A DNA stretch of 64,000 bases from an uncultured Clostridiaceae bacterium (GTDB lineage Bacteria; Bacillota; Clostridia; TANB77; CAG-465). Where the stretch lies: assembly GCA_947169155.1 (NCBI GenBank), contig CAMVON010000003.1, positions 76,285 to 140,284 on the forward strand. Reading direction: 5' to 3'. A program made the position numbers and the translations under genes. The notes below the pieces were generated by a model that did not search any database, was not told the origin of the DNA, and worked only from the letters and a program-made list of their open reading frames with translations. The stretch's first letter is position 1. Each line of letters opens with the position of its first letter. Positions 2,705 to 41,650 of this stretch are shown here, in pieces.

Positions 2705-2949
2705 ATAATCAACATCCTTTAATAATAAGTTATCATATATAATAAAAAAATACAATAAAAAATGGAAAATTAAAAATGAATAAAAATAATAATTTTTTAT
2801 GTTGAGTATTGAAAAATAAAATATAAACGAATAACATAATTACATAAGAAATAAAAAAGCAAGCAATGGTTCTTGATTTTTTATCAAAAGTATAGTATAA
2901 TACAAATAGTAAAAACGAACATAAATTTTTTTTAGTAAACAACCTCTAC

Positions 2950-2980
2950 GGGAAAAAGGATGCATTTTTAGTGCATCCTT
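2950..2980 (-). terminator. Rho-independent terminator of the pentapeptide/M23 operon
   Basis: Stem AAGGATGCA (2956-2964) / TGCATCCTT (2972-2980); on the minus strand it is followed by a T-run (complement of 2953-2957). Confidence 0.7.
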
Positions 2981-2986
2981 TGTTTT

Positions 2987-3766
2987 TTATTTTTGTATAA
3001 ACATTAATGGATCCATACCGCTAGACTCCTTAATATCTTTTCTAACAGCAAAATGTAAATGTGAATGTTCGTCATTCATTACATTTTGTACATTGTCTTT
3101 TCCACTTATTGTTCCAATTACTTGGTATTGAGATAAATATTGACCAACATATACATAAGTAGTGTTAAGATTTGCATAGTATGTATAAATTGTATAGTCT
3201 TTAATAACATGTTTAACTAACACATAGTTGCCATGCTTTGAATCATTTCCAACATCAACTACAACACCATAATTTGCACACATTACTTCTTGTCCGTTAT
3301 ATCCGTTTAAATCTACTCCATTATGAGCAAAATCATATGGCTTATTTAGTGTTGAATCTGAAAGGGGATTAATTAATGTGCCTTTTAAGTCTTTATAGTA
3401 GTTATAACTTGTATAATATACTATATTACTCCATAGGTCAAATTTTAAGTCAAAATTAAGTGAATTTGAATCATCTTGCATAGCATAATACATTCTTTTT
3501 TCATCTAGTTTAGCTTTTAAAAATGTTATTGGCTTAAAAACCCATACAAGAAGTACAATTAGTAGCACAGCTATTAATTTACCTGTATATTTAGATTTTG
3601 GCTTTGTAGAAGCAATAAAATCATCAACTTTTGAGTTATGTTTGTTTATTCTAAATTTTTCTTTCTTTTCTGTTTTATCTTTTTTTATCTTACTAACTGC
3701 ATTATTTTCTTTAGGACTTTGAGTGTAATCTGGCTCAACTCCAATATACTTAATATCGTCTGCCAT
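2987..3766 (-). CDS. Membrane-anchored M23/LytM-family peptidase
   Basis: 259 aa; Lys-rich N-terminus, one TM helix, C-terminal M23 motifs HNGVDL .. GNYVLVKH .. HLHFAV. Confidence 0.85.
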   Translation of the reverse strand: MADDIKYIGVEPDYTQSPKENNAVSKIKKDKTEKKEKFRINKHNSKVDDFIASTKPKSKYTGKLIAVLLIVLLVWVFKPITFLKAKLDEKRMYYAMQDDSNSLNFDLKFDLWSNIVYYTSYNYYKDLKGTLINPLSDSTLNKPYDFAHNGVDLNGYNGQEVMCANYGVVVDVGNDSKHGNYVLVKHVIKDYTIYTYYANLNTTYVYVGQYLSQYQVIGTISGKDNVQNVMNDEHSHLHFAVRKDIKESSGMDPLMFIQK

Positions 3767-4398
3767 TATTCTTTAACAACAATACCTAAAAGTTTAACAA
3801 AGGCAAGGCTTTGTGAACCTGTAAGTATTACTCCTTTAATATCTTTTGGATAAACAGTAATTCCAGATATTTCACTATCTCTTAAATCTAGTCCTGAAAG
3901 TTTTGTATCGCTTAAGTTTGCAAAACTTAAGTCTGAGTTAGTAATCTCTAAGTTTTTATGTTTTACATCTGTAAAGTTAGAATATCTCAAAGATGAGTTA
4001 GATATATCTACATAGTTCATTGAACTATTATCTAATACAATATCATTTAACACACAATCTTCAAATTTAACATTATCTAAATATGATGAAGTAGCTATTG
4101 CTCCTGTTAATTTAGAATTTTTAAATAGTACTCTTTTGAAAGTAGATTTTTCAAAATTAATTCCTGTTAAATCACAAGAATCAAAAACTACATCTTCAAC
4201 TTCACATTTTGGAAGTATAGTACCGCTAAATTTAACATTTTTAAAATAACTTTTAGAAATAATCACTTCATCTAATTCAAAATTTGCTATTTCTTCATTT
4301 TGTATTCTGCAGCTATCTATTTTGTCTGAATATTTAAGATAGCCAGTAGGATCAAAAAGAACATCTAGCTCTATAGGAAGTCTTGGTCCTGAAAGCAT
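3766..4398 (-). CDS. Pentapeptide-repeat protein
   Basis: 210 aa made almost entirely of tandem pentapeptide repeats (..SNSDLSFANLSDTKLSGLDLRDSEISG..); its TAA overlaps the ATG of the M23 gene by 1 nt (TAATG at 3764-3768, minus strand). Confidence 0.85.
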   Translation of the reverse strand: MLSGPRLPIELDVLFDPTGYLKYSDKIDSCRIQNEEIANFELDEVIISKSYFKNVKFSGTILPKCEVEDVVFDSCDLTGINFEKSTFKRVLFKNSKLTGAIATSSYLDNVKFEDCVLNDIVLDNSSMNYVDISNSSLRYSNFTDVKHKNLEITNSDLSFANLSDTKLSGLDLRDSEISGITVYPKDIKGVILTGSQSLAFVKLLGIVVKE

Positions 4399-4540
4399 TT
4401 TGTTTTCCCCCTTTAGATATTATAAGTATATAGACTTGTTTACGTTTTGTCAAATAATAATAAAAATATTTTAAAAGTGTGGAAATAATTTATTATTTGG
4501 TATATAATCAAAAAAAAGATTGCATATTTAGGGGGAAAAT

Positions 4541-7630: not shown

Positions 7631-7659
7631 ATTTATATTATCTCCCCTTAAAAGCAATA

Positions 7660-8256
7660 ATAAGATGGTGATTTCTTAAGTAAATACTATGGTTTAGGTC
7701 CAGTAGAATTTCTCTGCAATCTACTAACCATTGCTAGTTAGCCGTTTCCGTTTAAAGACAACACATGGAGGTTACCCTTACCATGAACTGGATCGCCACT
7801 TAAATCCATACTTTAATCCTTAAAAAATCTTATCCTTTTGGACAAACATCCTAGAAGTTTTCCTTTGGTGTGCACTGTACAATTACTAGTCTCTTTTGCA
7901 GTGTAAATTTCATTACCAGATATCAACTTATAATTGGCCACATATAAGTTCATACCTTTTTAACGGGTAAATCCCAATAACACCACTCAAGACAGGCTAC
8001 GCTACATATTGTGTCTTGGCACGCAATGTAGGGTTTTACTAATTGTGTCTATCATCATATTTAGAACTTTTAGCCTCAGCGAAAATAGGATGCGGTATTA
8101 TATGCCATTATAATCTACTCCTAAATTCTTTACTCCCAGACCACACGCAAAACTGGGCGTTTCGCGCATCGACCAGAAACTTCAACGGTATGCCTACTAG
8201 TGGATTTTTAGCCCCACCCTCGTAAAAGTTCGTGCAACTAGAATAATGCACCATCA
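7660..8256 (-). ncRNA. ole: OLE (ornate, large, extremophilic) RNA candidate
   Basis: About 600 nt with no credible ORF; GC-enriched relative to flanks; consensus promoter just upstream; numerous helices on the minus strand (GTGCA/TGCAC, CTACAT/ATGTAG, ACTTATA/TATAAGT, CACTG/CAGTG, CTAAC/GTTAG nested within ATGGTT/AACCAT); followed by an oapA-like gene. Boundaries are approximate and no covariance model was run. Confidence 0.6.
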
Positions 8257-8262
8257 CATATT

Positions 8263-8291
8263 ATTATACCACAAATTAATCAAAAATGCAA
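8263..8291 (-). promoter_or_regulatory. Sigma-A consensus promoter driving the OLE-like RNA and oapA
   Basis: Minus strand reads TTGCAT (8291-8286), exactly 17 nt, TATAAT (8268-8263), with TGG immediately 5' of the -10. Confidence 0.7.
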
Positions 8292-37531: not shown

Positions 37532-37999
37532 ATGAAAAAAATAGCAATATGTCTCTTTTTATGCCTACTTTTAATAGCAACTATTGTATATTCTAAAGAG
37601 GCACAAAGTTCAATTTATACAGATGTACCATCATCAGATAATATGGTAGAACTTTTAGCAAGACTAATTAATGCAGAAGCAAGAGGAGAAAGTTACTCAG
37701 GTCAAGTAGCAGTAGGTGCAGTAATAATGAATAGAGTAAAAAGTCCACTATTTCCAAATACAATTGCAGGTGTAATTTATTCTCCTGGACAATTTTCCTC
37801 TGTTGCAGATGGTCAAATCAATCTACCAATTGAAGAAGACTCAAGTGTATATATGGCAGCACAAGATGCAATAAATGGTGTAGATCCAACTTCAGGCGCC
37901 CTTTATTTCTATAACCCAAGCAAGACAAAATCTAAATGGCTTTTCTCACTACAAACGGTAACAACAATAGGAAAACATGTATTTGCAAAGGAGAGATAA
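37532..37999 (+). CDS. sleB: SleB/CwlJ-family spore cortex-lytic enzyme (catalytic domain only, with signal peptide)
   Basis: 155 aa; signal peptide; hydrolase_2 motifs ..LARLINAEARGE.. ..VAVGAVIMNRV.. ..PGQFS..; followed by ypeB. Confidence 0.8.
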   Translation: MKKIAICLFLCLLLIATIVYSKEAQSSIYTDVPSSDNMVELLARLINAEARGESYSGQVAVGAVIMNRVKSPLFPNTIAGVIYSPGQFSSVADGQINLPIEEDSSVYMAAQDAINGVDPTSGALYFYNPSKTKSKWLFSLQTVTTIGKHVFAKER

Positions 38000-39357
38000 T
38001 GGAAAAGTTTGAAAAACTAGTAATAAGAATAAAAGAAAAGCTTGGAGATAAAAAAGTTGGAATAATATATTTTGCAATAATAGCAATAATAACATTATTT
38101 TTTATGAACATTCTTAAAGGATATAAAATTGAAAGACAAGAAAGAGAAGATTCATATAATAAGGCACTATATAACTTTATTGGAGATATAAGTAATATAA
38201 AAAATGAGATGTTAAAACTTAAAATAACTACAAATGATACATATACTTTAACAACATTAGCAAGTGTTTTTGCAAAAGCTAACAGTAGTATATCTAACTT
38301 GTCTACACTGCCTTTATCACCAAACATAACAGAAAAAATAAATATGTATCTAACTCAAACTAGTGATTATTCATATACACTTATGCGAGCAATTTTAAAT
38401 AGTCAAGAATTAAAAGAAGATGATATAAGACAAAATATAGATTTGTTGTATAACAAAATAGACGAGCTAGATAAAGCATTAAATTCTTTATACATACAAA
38501 TAAATGAAAAAGGAATAAAATGGAACGAGTTAAAAGAAGAAGGGGATAATATATTAAATGATCAAATAACAGATATAGATAGTACAACAAGTGGTAAAAT
38601 AATAAAACCATTTACAGACTATGAAGGCATCATTTATGACGGAGCATTTTCAAATCATATATTGTCTTTAAAGCCAAAATCGCTATCAGATAGAATAATT
38701 TCACAAGAAGAAGGAGAAAGCCTTTTAAAAGACAAATTTGAAACGATGAACGTACAATTTATTGAAGAACTAAACGGACAAATTGAATTATACAAGTACA
38801 AGGTAGATGAAAATGAAGTATATATAACAAAACAAGATGGAAAACTATACCAAATGATAGGAAACAGAAAAGTTGAAGAAAAGAAAATTGAAAGTAAAGA
38901 GGCAATAGATAATGCAAAAGAGTTCCTAAAAAAATGGAACATAGAAAGCATAGAACAAACATATTACCAAGAAATGGATAATACTCTAACAATTTCTTTT
39001 GCAGCAATTCAAGATAATGTAATTTGCTACTCAGATTTAATAAAAGTTAAAGTCGCACTAGACAATGGCAAAATATTAATGGTAGAAGCTAATGGGTATA
39101 TATTTAACAATCATCTGAGGGTAATTAATCCTGTTAACACAGAACAAACAGCAAAAGAAAAAATAAATCCAAACTTAAATATAGAAAAAACAAGACTTGC
39201 TCTTATTCCAACTGAATCTAAAGATGAAGTATTATGTTATGAATTCTTAGGAAGCATAGAAGATAAGAAATTTTTAGTATATATAAATACAGCTAGTCTA
39301 ATTACAGAAAAAATTTATATATTACTAGATACACAAGGTGGTACTCTTGCAATTTAG
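37999..39357 (+). CDS. ypeB: Germination protein YpeB
   Basis: 452 aa from ATG 37999, which overlaps the sleB TAA by 1 nt (TAATG); N-terminal TM; YpeB-like body and C-terminal PepSY-type repeats; canonical sleB-ypeB pairing. Confidence 0.8.
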   Translation: MEKFEKLVIRIKEKLGDKKVGIIYFAIIAIITLFFMNILKGYKIERQEREDSYNKALYNFIGDISNIKNEMLKLKITTNDTYTLTTLASVFAKANSSISNLSTLPLSPNITEKINMYLTQTSDYSYTLMRAILNSQELKEDDIRQNIDLLYNKIDELDKALNSLYIQINEKGIKWNELKEEGDNILNDQITDIDSTTSGKIIKPFTDYEGIIYDGAFSNHILSLKPKSLSDRIISQEEGESLLKDKFETMNVQFIEELNGQIELYKYKVDENEVYITKQDGKLYQMIGNRKVEEKKIESKEAIDNAKEFLKKWNIESIEQTYYQEMDNTLTISFAAIQDNVICYSDLIKVKVALDNGKILMVEANGYIFNNHLRVINPVNTEQTAKEKINPNLNIEKTRLALIPTESKDEVLCYEFLGSIEDKKFLVYINTASLITEKIYILLDTQGGTLAI

Positions 39358-39391
39358 TATTAAAATATGATATATAATAATTGGTGATATT

Positions 39392-40465
39392 ATGATACAA
39401 AATGCAATGAAATGTAAATTTTCATCTAAAGATTTATTTGCTGCCAAAAGAAATGAAGATGGTATGCTAGAGTTAGATGAAATGATAGGTGACTTTCCAA
39501 CATATTCAAGAGAAAAAGTAGGTACAGCAGAAAGACAAAAGAACTGGTTTGAAACAAAAGATGGAAAACAATATATGTTAAAAACTAGTGTAGATAGAAT
39601 AGATAACTATTCACATTATGCAGAATTAATAGCTATGAAACTTGCTCGTCAAGTTGGACTTGGATATGCAAATTATGATTTAGTAAAATATGATGGAAAA
39701 GTTGGCGTAATAACAGAGTCAATACTAGAAAAAGAAGATGATGTATTACTAAGCTTTGAAGATTTAATTGGAACATCAATGGCTCATCCAGACAATCCAT
39801 CAATAATAGATTATCCAGATTCAATGAGAATGCTTGCAAAATCTTTAAAAGAAAATGGATATAGTGAACAAACTCAAAAGAAAATAATAAAAGACCTTGG
39901 AAAACTTCGTGTTTTCGATTTTCTAGTAGGTGCAGAAGATAGACATACAGAAAATATAGGCTTTATGGCAAACAAAAAAGATAAAACAAAACTTGAAGTA
40001 TCTAAAATATTTGATACAGAAAATTCACTACTATTAGCAGATCATGTAGAAGATGTAATGGCTTATGCTTTTGATCCAAAACGTTGTGAACAAGCAGCAA
40101 AAGATGTAATTCCAAAAGTTGCACTTGTTCCAAACGAAGATGCACAAGGAGAAGAAATAGCAGATGCAACTTTAGAAGTTACATTAAGTGATGATTTCGA
40201 ACTAGAAGATTTTCTATCATATGCTACAGAAACAATGGATGTAGATAAAGCAACAAAAGAACTAGAAGAAGAACTTGGTACAACATTACCTATAGAGGTT
40301 AAAAGGGTTGCTAAAGCAGTACTTGAAACAAATAAAAGACGTGCAAAAGATTATCTATATGGTGAAATGGAAGTAGACTACGATTCAGATTATATAGATA
40401 AGAATAAACAGATAATAAATGATGTAAGAGAAAAGCAAAAGAAAGACATTGAAGATATTGACTAG
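39392..40465 (+). CDS. HipA-family Ser/Thr kinase core with a long acidic C-terminal extension
   Basis: 357 aa; catalytic-loop-like ..FLVGAEDRHTENIGF.. (compare HipA D-x-H-x-x-N), downstream ..KIFDTENS..; ..HYAELIAMKLARQVGLGYANYDLVKYDGKVGVITESI.. resembles the HipA core; lacks a HipA N-terminal subdomain. Confidence 0.65.
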   Translation: MIQNAMKCKFSSKDLFAAKRNEDGMLELDEMIGDFPTYSREKVGTAERQKNWFETKDGKQYMLKTSVDRIDNYSHYAELIAMKLARQVGLGYANYDLVKYDGKVGVITESILEKEDDVLLSFEDLIGTSMAHPDNPSIIDYPDSMRMLAKSLKENGYSEQTQKKIIKDLGKLRVFDFLVGAEDRHTENIGFMANKKDKTKLEVSKIFDTENSLLLADHVEDVMAYAFDPKRCEQAAKDVIPKVALVPNEDAQGEEIADATLEVTLSDDFELEDFLSYATETMDVDKATKELEEELGTTLPIEVKRVAKAVLETNKRRAKDYLYGEMEVDYDSDYIDKNKQIINDVREKQKKDIEDID

Positions 40466-40479
40466 GGTTTACATAAACA

Positions 40480-40508
40480 TTGACTTTTATACTAAATTAT
40501 GTTATAAT
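40480..40508 (+). promoter_or_regulatory. Sigma-A consensus promoter with extended -10, private to the HipS-like gene
   Basis: TTGACT (40480-40485), exactly 17 nt, TG-TATAAT (40503-40508). Confidence 0.65.
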
Positions 40509-40561
40509 ACTTATTGACATCATTTAATATGAAAGGAAAATTAACGAATGGGGGTTTTGTT

Positions 40562-40822
40562 ATGAAGTACAAAGTAATGTATGATGGAATAGTGATCGGA
40601 ATGTACAACGTTATTAGTAACAGTTGTGTTGAATATACAATAGATAAAAATGGAATAGATGAGTTAAAAAAGAAAGGTATTGAAGTTTTACCAATGATTT
40701 CAAAAGATTATACAGGTAAAAGTTTTCCATTCTTTGATAACAGAATCAGGAACTGTAAACGTTTCGAAGGGGTATCTATTGGATATCAAACCGATCCTGT
40801 TGTATTAGAAGAGATGAGTTAA
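40562..40822 (+). CDS. Stand-alone HipA-N-terminal-subdomain (HipS-like) protein
   Basis: 86 aa from ATG 40562 (GGGGG 8 nt upstream; the TTG at 40514 would precede the predicted TSS); MKYKVMYDGIVIGMYNV.. and ..KSFPFFDNRIRN.. resemble the start and the FFDNLLP-type motif of HipA N-terminal domains. Confidence 0.55.
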   Translation: MKYKVMYDGIVIGMYNVISNSCVEYTIDKNGIDELKKKGIEVLPMISKDYTGKSFPFFDNRIRNCKRFEGVSIGYQTDPVVLEEMS

Positions 40823-40840
40823 AAACTCATCTCTCTTTTT
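40810..40840 (+). terminator. Rho-independent terminator overlapping the stop codon
   Basis: Stem AGAGATGAGTT (40810-40820) / AACTCATCTCT (40824-40834) followed by TTTTT. Confidence 0.8.
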
Positions 40841-40930
40841 ATATTTTTTTAACCAAAATTTCATTGCAATACTATACCCTTTTTGATATAATAACCATAG
40901 TAAAAACAAACAAAGGTTTAGAGGTGAAAT

Positions 40931-41650
40931 ATGGAGTATATTTTAATTGACCCTAGGATGAGAAATGTGGAAAAAAACACATTAAAATACCTAGGATATG
41001 AGTTAGTACCAATACAAAGAAGCAATAATGTATATCCAGAAATATCTTCTCATGTAGATATTTTTACTACAAAAATTGGAGATACATTAGTAGTAGAAAA
41101 GTCTCAGTTTGAAGACTTAACTTTTATGCTTAAAAAGAGTGAATATAATATCGTATGTGGTAAAGAGCAAATTGAAATGCATTATCCAGATGATATCAAA
41201 TATAATGTAGCAATAATTGGAAACTATGCTGTACATAATTTTAAATATACAGATAAAAAAGTATTAAAACTACTTCAAGAAGGTGGCTACGAGCTAATTG
41301 ATGTTGAACAAGGATATACAAATTGTTCTATAGCGGTAATAGATGATACAAGTGTAATTACAACAGACAAAAAAATAGCAGAAAGACTAAGAGCAAATAA
41401 CCTTAGTGTGCTACTTCTAGACTACACTCCAGATATAAAGCTACTAGATGAACACGGAAGATATAGCTCAATGCAAGGTTTTATTGGTGGAGCAATTGGA
41501 AAAGTAGATAACAACATCATTATATTTGGTGATTTAGAAAAAATAGATAGAGATGGACAAATACGTAAGTTTATAACAGATAGACATTTAACAATAGTTG
41601 AGTTTAATGGACTAGATGTAATAGATTACGGCGGAATATTAGAGGTGTAA
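40931..41650 (+). CDS. Uncharacterised protein, possibly amidinotransferase/GME-fold-like (DUF6873-like, tentative)
   Basis: 239 aa; GAGGTGA RBS; ..HYPDDIKYNVAIIG.. and ..EQGYTNCSIAVI.. recall guanidino-modifying-enzyme folds; no C-terminal catalytic Cys seen; stop is 1 nt before pcrA. Confidence 0.45.
   Translation: MEYILIDPRMRNVEKNTLKYLGYELVPIQRSNNVYPEISSHVDIFTTKIGDTLVVEKSQFEDLTFMLKKSEYNIVCGKEQIEMHYPDDIKYNVAIIGNYAVHNFKYTDKKVLKLLQEGGYELIDVEQGYTNCSIAVIDDTSVITTDKKIAERLRANNLSVLLLDYTPDIKLLDEHGRYSSMQGFIGGAIGKVDNNIIIFGDLEKIDRDGQIRKFITDRHLTIVEFNGLDVIDYGGILEV

Follow-up and report, generated by a model that had tools for sequence, protein, structure and literature searches.

Within a 64,000-nucleotide (nt) stretch of an uncultured Clostridiaceae bacterium (contig CAMVON010000003.1; the whole stretch is called the window below), a gene for a 357-amino-acid (aa) HipA-family protein kinase is followed on the same strand by a gene for an 86-aa protein that resembles HipS, the small subunit of split Hip kinases. 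We hold it to be reasonably probable that the two proteins make up a permuted HipA-type kinase split over two subunits, a module of the hipJS kind, in which a toxin-like kinase would be inhibited by its HipS-like partner. Comparison across loci supports a co-conserved pair in which the kinase gene comes first, the small gene has its own promoter and no HipB is present. The features on which the argument rests are the following.

39392..40465, + strand: kinase gene, 357 aa; HipA_C serine/threonine kinase core without the HipA N-subdomain-1, of the HipT/HipI/HipJ type
39521..39541, + strand: putative Gly-rich loop region, G44-K50 (GTAERQK), from an eight-sequence alignment of the kinase family; aligns with YGSGRSEK of phage HipI
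39581..39583, + strand: Lys64, putative ATP-binding lysine (YMLK), aligned with the lysine of HipT(Lp) "yilK"
39938..39955, + strand: predicted catalytic motif D183-R-H185-T-E-N188, with D183, H185 and N188 invariant; alignments with HipA and HipT(Lp)
40010..40024, + strand: predicted Mg-binding motif F-D208-T-E-N, with D208 invariant; alignments with HipA and HipT(Lp)
40480..40508, + strand: predicted internal sigma-70-type promoter of the small gene; top promoter match in a 5-kb scan, conserved
40550..40554, + strand: Shine-Dalgarno sequence GGGGG, 7 nt before the small-gene ATG, read from the sequence and kept in all alleles
40562..40822, + strand: small gene, 86 aa from a conserved ATG; HipS-like by hhalign, structural model and Foldseek
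40730..40753, + strand: F57-F58-D59-N60-R61-I62-R63-N64, counterpart of FF(D/E)xLLP in the hhalign register
40810-40834 (end also given as 40844), + strand: predicted intrinsic terminator, an 11-bp stem followed by a T-run, lying across the 3' end of the small gene and ending the unit
39392..40790, no strand: limits of the polymorphic two-gene cassette, from sliding identity against loci L007, L008 and L010 and from boundary alignments

The kinase and its small partner

The 357-aa protein matched the Pfam HipA_C profile (PF07804) over residues 41-235 with 46.2 bits, above the curated gathering score of 30.5, and its best profile matches overall were the PADLOC PDC-M03A models (2e-21). Its best relative of solved structure was the split kinase HipT of Legionella, HipT(Lp) (8ezr_B, E 6e-4), and its family aligned over residues 43-319 with the 289-aa kinase HipI of phage phiCDKH02 (hhalign probability 97.6%, E 4e-12). 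The HipA-like catalytic loop and the IFDTENS segment downstream of it, both pointed out in an earlier reading of the letters and open reading frames (ORFs) alone (the sequence-only reading), were confirmed in the sequence, as were the other peptide motifs it quoted: FLVGAEDRHTENIGF contains, at 39938-39955, the residues D183, H185 and N188 (D-x-H-x-x-N), aligned with D309-G-H-A-K-N314 of HipA and DMHLKN of HipT(Lp), and IFDTENS contains D208 (40013-40015), aligned with YD332 of HipA and YDLLNS of HipT(Lp). All four residues were invariant in the eight-sequence alignment, as were G44, R48 and K50 of the region that probably forms the Gly-rich loop, a reading that follows from its alignment with phage HipI. 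This loop, G44-x5-K50, is conserved and two residues longer than the GAQEK of HipA. A lysine stood at the K64 position in eight of the eight sequences (YMLK, FLIK, ALIK or YMFK) when the alignment blocks were read by eye, although the column was not listed as invariant by the tool, apparently owing to a local gap shift in P0005. Because the catalytic, Mg-binding and Gly-rich residues are invariant, and the catalytic and Mg-binding ones align with those of HipA and HipT, the kinase looks active, as far as can be predicted from its motifs.

The HipA N-subdomain-1 is missing from this protein. The proposal that it begins directly at the kinase core was correct with regard to that subdomain but overlooked about 40 conserved residues ahead of the Gly-rich loop, which are comparable to the N-terminal mini-domain of HipT (PMC10627512). 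The C-terminal extension of about 100 aa, described as rich in Asp and Glu, turned out to be mostly kinase C-lobe, because the family aligns with the 289-aa phage HipI across residues 43-319; the true extension amounts to only about 38 acidic residues.

The 86-aa protein gave no matches in Pfam, NCBIfam, PADLOC or PHROGs, and neither a HIRAN domain nor a PDC-M03 model match was found in it. A profile of its close homologues, run against 1.84 billion representative proteins, recovered a family of 42 clusters at 50% identity, almost all of whose members are about 85 aa long; Couple_hipA, the only Pfam family matching more than one member, was matched weakly by two of the 42 (best E 0.13). Against a profile of the HipA N-subdomain-1 composed of E. 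coli HipA and 16 diverse HipA N-termini from Table S1 of PMC8262856, the 42-member family (A6) reached an hhalign probability of 92-94%, E 7e-7 to 2e-7 and a score of 38-45, compared with 10.2 +/- 2.0 (maximum 19.7) for 100 column shuffles of the template, and residues 1-64 of the small protein aligned to residues 2-67 of HipA with FFDN on FFDN. The match was modest when the template was the E. coli HipA N-terminus with close enterobacterial relatives only (E 8.5e-4), and weak for the HipS-like domain of phage HipN (E 0.1); a PDB query with the phage HipN N-terminus yielded no HipS sequences.

An AlphaFold (AF2) model of the small protein built from the 42-sequence alignment attained a predicted local distance difference test score (pLDDT) of 93.6. 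In a Foldseek search with this model, the top two PDB matches were HipS of Legionella, HipS(Lp) (7vkb_B and 8ezr_A; probability 0.99 and 0.97; template modelling score 0.56-0.58), followed at ranks 3-12 by E. coli HipA N-termini and HipS(Ec), the HipS of E. coli O127. A first model from nine close sequences was poor (pLDDT 63), with Foldseek matches that were merely suggestive, and was replaced by the 42-sequence model; a Foldseek search of viral structures with the small-protein model returned nothing meaningful. Because the profile-profile comparison with its shuffle controls and a confident model with HipS and HipA as its best PDB matches point the same way, the small protein is, in sequence and predicted fold, a shortened HipS-like homologue of HipA N-subdomain-1. 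The resemblance to this subdomain, suspected earlier from an FFDNLLP-type motif, has thereby held up in both hhalign and Foldseek. As for the shortening, the segment KSFPFFDNRIRN contains F57-N64 (40730-40753), and its FFxNRIxN is followed almost directly by the final strand (IGYHTD...L), so that the helical stretch of HipA and HipS is skipped. The hhalign register puts D59 on the conserved Glu/Asp of FF(E/D)xLLP, and R61, present in 33 of the 42 family members, would take the place of Trp65 of E. coli HipS, judging from a comparison with PMC10627512.

Co-conservation, allelic divergence and the internal promoter

The order of the two genes and a spacer of 85-110 nt between them were kept in the rseP-bofA-sleB-ypeB ... 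DUF6873-pcrA context of the window (L001-L013, L028-L030) and also in metagenome-assembled genomes of distant Clostridia, in which the kinase is 27-30% and the small protein 30-34% identical. The distant pairs lie in three further contexts, namely a tmk/ribosomal-protein operon, a topoisomerase/murA neighbourhood and the vicinity of infC, so that the pair was found in at least four unrelated chromosomal contexts, with its order kept in all four. The pairwise identities of kinase and small protein co-vary across the loci (r = 0.90). The family is sparse: 13 loci were recovered among 185,579 species genomes, and a metagenome scan with a closer alignment added only three, with the same layout. 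Two natural single-chain fusions, P0042 (421 aa) and P0054 (424 aa), comprise kinase, C-lobe and HipS-like domain, and both are HipA_C-positive; P0054 lies where the window pair does, at the bofA-sleB-ypeB ... DUF6873 site. Such fusions, together with the co-conservation, indirectly support an interaction of the two parts. The idea of a bipartite kinase/N-subdomain pair in reversed order is upheld by these loci, and the pair is co-conserved in the lineage of the window and in the distant Clostridia.

No gene encoding a helix-turn-helix (HTH) protein adjoins the pair in the window, where the upstream neighbour encodes YpeB and the downstream neighbour a DUF6873 protein, in agreement with the earlier remark that a HipB-like gene is lacking. 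An HTH was likewise not found at any locus examined, and Pfam recognised no DNA-binding domain in the kinase or the small protein. In one distant sub-clade, ORFs of about 145-200 aa stand directly upstream of the kinase (L018:1472-1978, also 811-1416 and 294-773; L019:5491-5940; L021:5542-5973). These ORFs share an N-terminal motif of approximately Y-x-EV-x-x-IL-x-x-LG-x-x-YK-x-KIP, have no Pfam match and no HTH, are absent from the window, and could represent a third component in that sub-clade.

Comparison with strains of the same population revealed an abrupt change of identity at the edges of the pair. At L007, L008 and L010 the flanks are 97-100% identical to the window at the nt level on both sides, and identity drops to 55-78% over an interval that opens at the kinase ATG (39392) and closes near 40790, shortly ahead of the small-gene stop; in the sliding comparison with these loci, identity outside the cassette is 94-100%. 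Between these alleles, the kinases are 39-40% and the small proteins 69% identical in protein sequence. The reverse mosaic was observed at L011 and L028, whose flanks have diverged by about 10% (YpeB 86-89%) and whose cassettes are 99.7-100% identical to that of the window, and in the sister species at L001 (flanks about 74% identical in nt) the kinase is 45-46% identical to that of the window, closer than the alternative allele of the window's own population. The allelic divergence of the kinase spans the whole protein, being least in the N-lobe (about 50% identity at residues 41-110) and greatest at residues 111-170 and in the tail (27-30% identity). Within alleles both genes are under purifying selection, the kinase with a dN/dS (the ratio of nonsynonymous to synonymous substitution rates) of 0.12-0.14 and the small gene with one of 0-0.2. 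Between alleles the synonymous sites are saturated, which renders dN/dS uninformative there, and the flanking genes show dS of 0.03-0.24. The sharp divergence boundaries, the reverse mosaic and the purifying selection within alleles are the grounds on which we regard the cassette, in the light of these sequence comparisons, as old and functional, and as a block that is exchanged by way of its conserved flanks.

Two local patterns were observed in addition. YpeB (37936-39357) is unusually variable between strains, with 73-98% aa identity against 91-100% for SleB, DUF6873 and PcrA (L011, L028, L029 and L006), and its divergence does not follow the cassette allele, a sign of mosaic recombination around the cassette; a YpeB dN/dS value for L010 versus L006 was disregarded as an alignment-frame artefact. 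The window kinase and P0001 are 97% identical overall, and their identity is lowest, at 87%, over residues 261-320 (40172-40351), against 97-100% elsewhere, which marks a local hot spot in the C-lobe.

HipA kinases are classically tied to dormancy, and the position of the pair invites the explanation that the kinase acts in spore dormancy or germination, being co-transcribed with sleB-ypeB in the forespore, with the small protein serving as a brake in vegetative cells. The kinase gene starts only 34 nt past the ypeB stop with no predicted terminator between them, and the order bofA-sleB-ypeB-kinase is kept throughout the sub-lineage, including the fused variant. However, the distant pairs beside tmk/ribosomal genes, topoisomerase/murA or infC have no sporulation genes nearby, no convincing forespore-type promoter was seen by eye upstream of sleB, and a shared conserved substrate is hard to reconcile with extreme allelic divergence next to an almost invariant sleB. 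We therefore consider a sporulation role quite improbable.

The promoter that the sequence-only reading had assigned to the 86-aa gene consists of a -35 element TTGACT (40480-40485), a 17-nt spacer, TG (40500-40501) and a -10 element TATAAT (40503-40508). This arrangement, TTGACT-17-TG-n-TATAAT, was the top sigma-70-type match in 5 kb, agreeing at 11 of 12 positions and carrying the TG; promoter-like sites as a class were not enriched in this AT-rich DNA (34 found versus 31 expected in shuffled sequence). The promoter is kept in the divergent alleles and at L001, and TTGnnn-17-TGnTATAAT recurs in the kinase/small-gene spacer of the distant loci L016-L019 and L021, where the surrounding sequence is unrelated; the spacer of L014 has an extended -10 alone, with no clear -35. 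A single match of this kind proves little, and it is the conservation in most lineages despite diverged surroundings that makes the promoter meaningful, so that separate transcription of the small gene is predicted to be conserved in the family, the match being more than a chance hexamer. A conserved promoter of the lid gene points to dosage control. No terminator was predicted between the kinase and the small gene. A mechanically called TTG start at 40514, which would give a small protein of 102 aa, coincides with the predicted transcription start and so would not serve in the cell. In the ypeB-kinase spacer, a -10-like element, TG-a-TATATA overlapping TATAAT (39368-39378), stands about 15 nt before the kinase ATG and is kept in all alleles and at L001, but it was not accepted as a kinase promoter, since the leader would be about 9 nt. 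At L014 and L016-L021, short inverted repeats, such as ATGTGTAATACACACAT in L016, occur in the spacer just past the small-gene -10 and may serve as operators or as hairpins of the 5' untranslated region; the window has no clear equivalent.

These data also bear on whether the locus could be the decaying remnant of a HipA gene split by rearrangement, with a coincidental small ORF and promoter. The small ORF is unrecognised by any library and promoter-like hexamers are common in AT-rich DNA, as such an origin would lead one to expect. Both ORFs, however, are full length in more than 20 loci at identities down to 27-34%, dN/dS is about 0.1-0.2, the catalytic residues are invariant, and the promoter is conserved though its surroundings have diverged. 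The remnant explanation is effectively refuted by these conservation data, and we give it next to no credence. The same full-length conservation, together with the low within-allele dN/dS, establishes both ORFs as real genes, and their previously assigned coordinates agree with the sequence.

Relation to known Hip systems

Hip kinases are the founding example of bacterial persistence. Among the Hip modules surveyed by Gerdes, Baerentsen and Brodersen (2021, mBio; PMC8262856), three families place the kinase first and lack an HTH partner: hipJS, predicted to consist of a short kinase without N-subdomain-1 followed by HipS (2 of 1,239 modules), hipIN, with a kinase followed by a HipS-HIRAN protein (14 of 1,239), and hipL, a single-chain kinase-HipS-HIRAN protein (14 of 1,239). 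The layout suggested by the sequence-only reading to be undescribed had in fact already been defined there as hipJS. Our literature search found no experimental study of hipJS, hipIN or hipL; these kinase-first, HipS-second families are only predicted, and the locus provides a compact and well-delimited example of them.

The window module has the hipJS organisation, being bicistronic, with a short Hip kinase devoid of N-subdomain-1, a separate HipS gene after it, and no HTH/HipB. It differs from hipJS in several respects. HipJ kinases measure 279-321 aa, whereas the window kinase has 357 aa including its acidic tail of about 38 aa, and its closest profile matches are the HipI-type kinases in the Hip tree's clade XI. 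The HipS-like protein is shortened to 86 aa and invisible to Pfam Couple_hipA, and the small gene has a conserved promoter of its own. Fusions devoid of HIRAN occur among the relatives, and the cassette is polymorphic at a fixed core-genome site.

The hipBST systems of E. coli O127:H6 and Legionella pneumophila likewise split the HipA fold into the kinase HipT and the N-subdomain-1-like HipS, which is the antitoxin, and HipT(Lp) and HipS(Lp) are the best solved matches of the two window proteins. Unlike the order hipB-hipS-hipT, the window has the kinase before HipS and ypeB instead of hipB upstream, and at the gene junction a promoter takes the place of an operon-type overlap. The window kinase shows no conservation of the S-psi-S autophosphorylation motif, and an Arg probably stands where HipS(Ec) has its Trp65 wedge.

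With hipIN/PDC-M03, exemplified by phiCDKH02, the window shares its closest kinase profile match, the kinase-first order and a second gene that begins HipS-like; in contrast, the window partner has no HIRAN domain, and the pair lies on the chromosome amid housekeeping genes, with no phage integrase next to it. The only relative of the window kinase in the phage collection was that of Clostridioides phage phiCDKH02 (L025; PP767789.1), where a hipIN-type pair at 2860-4449, beside the integrase, encodes a 289-aa HipA-domain kinase and then a 235-aa HIRAN protein whose N-terminus matches Couple_hipA weakly. HipL resembles the relatives P0042 and P0054 as a single-chain kinase-HipS fusion of the same domain order, but these fusions have no HIRAN domain, and in the window the two parts are separate genes. 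The hipBA system of E. coli K-12 has the same kinase fold and catalytic motifs, with the small protein corresponding to HipA residues 2-67; there, however, the lid is N-terminal in cis, and the HTH antitoxin HipB neutralises the kinase and autoregulates, neither of which applies here. We found no prior description of three elements of the locus, namely the strain-level polymorphism of the cassette, the conserved internal promoter, and the series of split and fused forms at one locus. Two allele pairs that have diverged naturally within one genetic background are suited to tests of cross-neutralisation and specificity, and the locus illustrates that Hip modules can be polymorphic cassettes within core gene neighbourhoods, which searches for defence islands would overlook.

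Proposed working, possible roles and neighbouring features

In the mechanism that we propose, the 357-aa protein would be a catalytically competent HipA-family Ser/Thr kinase lacking the N-subdomain-1 lid, and the 86-aa protein, encoded downstream, would supply the missing lid. Read-through and a strong constitutive promoter of its own would both contribute transcripts of the lid gene, leaving the lid in excess over the kinase. The known precedent for its action is HipS, which inhibits HipT by a wedge beside the Gly-rich loop (PMC10627512). By analogy with HipS-HipT, the small protein may bind the kinase N-lobe beside that loop and keep the kinase off, the contact being made by the conserved FFxNR(I/L) segment, in which Arg61 would occupy the place of the HipS Trp65. 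Loss of this inhibition would allow the kinase to phosphorylate an essential target and arrest growth. In the characterised Hip kinases, the target is an aminoacyl-tRNA synthetase. Binding, inhibition, toxicity, the target and any defence role are thus what we infer for this pair by analogy.

Several results weigh against this interpretation. With respect to the identity of the small protein, neither its single sequence nor its family hidden Markov model found a Hip chain among PDB sequences, the window protein had no Couple_hipA (PF13657) match at E <= 10 when the profile was applied to it, and the Foldseek E-values of its model were marginal (0.05-1), though the ranking was unambiguous. With respect to the mode of action, no Ser/Thr is conserved beside the Gly-rich loop of the kinase in the eight-sequence alignment, the fusions have no other partner, which implies that the lid can work in cis and misfits the classical model of a labile antitoxin, and the small protein is more conserved between alleles than the kinase (69% versus 39%), the reverse of usual antitoxins. 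The module also contains no DNA-binding component and always sits among housekeeping genes, with none on plasmids or viral contigs, where searches for the kinase were empty, apart from the distant hipIN pair of the C. difficile phage.

Much of this evidence would suit the main rival explanation, according to which the pair is a domesticated two-subunit regulatory kinase whose small protein is an obligatory structural lid instead of an inhibitor; the holoenzyme would phosphorylate a physiological substrate in ordinary cell regulation and would behave neither as a toxin-antitoxin system nor in defence. In the single-chain fusions the lid is permanently attached, the module runs in the same direction as the genes around it, in conserved housekeeping neighbourhoods, and was absent from the plasmids and viral contigs searched, both genes are under purifying selection, the small protein is the better conserved of the two, and the cis lid of HipA does not inhibit (PMC8262856). 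In such a regulator one would not, however, expect a sequence difference of 60% between strains with flanks 97-100% identical, nor reshuffling relative to those flanks. The family is rare and patchy (13 loci in 185,579 species genomes; 42 clusters at 50% identity), the strong small-gene promoter in most of it suggests a need for excess instead of stoichiometric assembly, and the closest profile matches of the kinase are defence-candidate and phage-borne HipI kinases. On balance, we judge the regulatory kinase rather unlikely.

The HipS-inhibited, toxin-like module thus remains the reading that we favour, and the polymorphism of the cassette together with the separate promoter leans towards a conflict or toxin-type module. 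A pair that evolves and recombines as a unit, with divergent alleles at a fixed site, is more in keeping with a conflict system than with a housekeeping regulator. Validation in phage defence exists for one HipA-family kinase system (PMC13092281), and PDC-M03 is a two-gene defence candidate of HipA and HIRAN (PMC13245101). A conflict role, either in abortive-infection defence or as an addiction module, is plausible because of the cassette polymorphism, the rare and patchy family, the profile affinity of the kinase to HipI and defence candidates, and this precedent for HipA-family kinases in phage defence. A more elaborate proposal, which we regard as speculative and somewhat doubtful, would make the site a strain-specific immunity or conflict locus held by long-term balancing selection at a fixed housekeeping position in uncultured gut Clostridia, where old, co-adapted kinase/HipS-like pairs, fused in sister lineages, are swapped when the conserved flanks recombine homologously. 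The rapidly evolving body of the kinase (residues of about 111-170 and the C-lobe) might then track phage triggers or inhibitors, and the lid with Arg in place of Trp might act as a releasable brake. If correct, this would be the first natural population-genetic case for a Hip kinase in phage defence, and would represent a new split and fused permuted HipA architecture without HIRAN or HTH.

The genes upstream of the kinase are, in order, rseP, bofA, sleB and ypeB, and those downstream of the small gene are the DUF6873 gene, pcrA and a Ham1-family gene. The pair had been placed between the sleB-ypeB germination genes and pcrA, which is right for the upstream side; downstream, the immediate neighbour is the DUF6873 gene, and pcrA comes after it. 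DUF6873 was rejected as a third component of the module, since it falls beyond the limits of the divergent cassette and does not occur at the distant loci. Its gene (40931-41650) appears to have a promoter of its own, TTGCAA-17-TG-n-TATAAT (40864-40892), directly past the cassette terminator. Elsewhere in the window, a full-length OLE (Ornate Large Extremophilic) RNA (RF01071, 371 bits), the sole Rfam match in the window, lies at 7649-8270 on the - strand.

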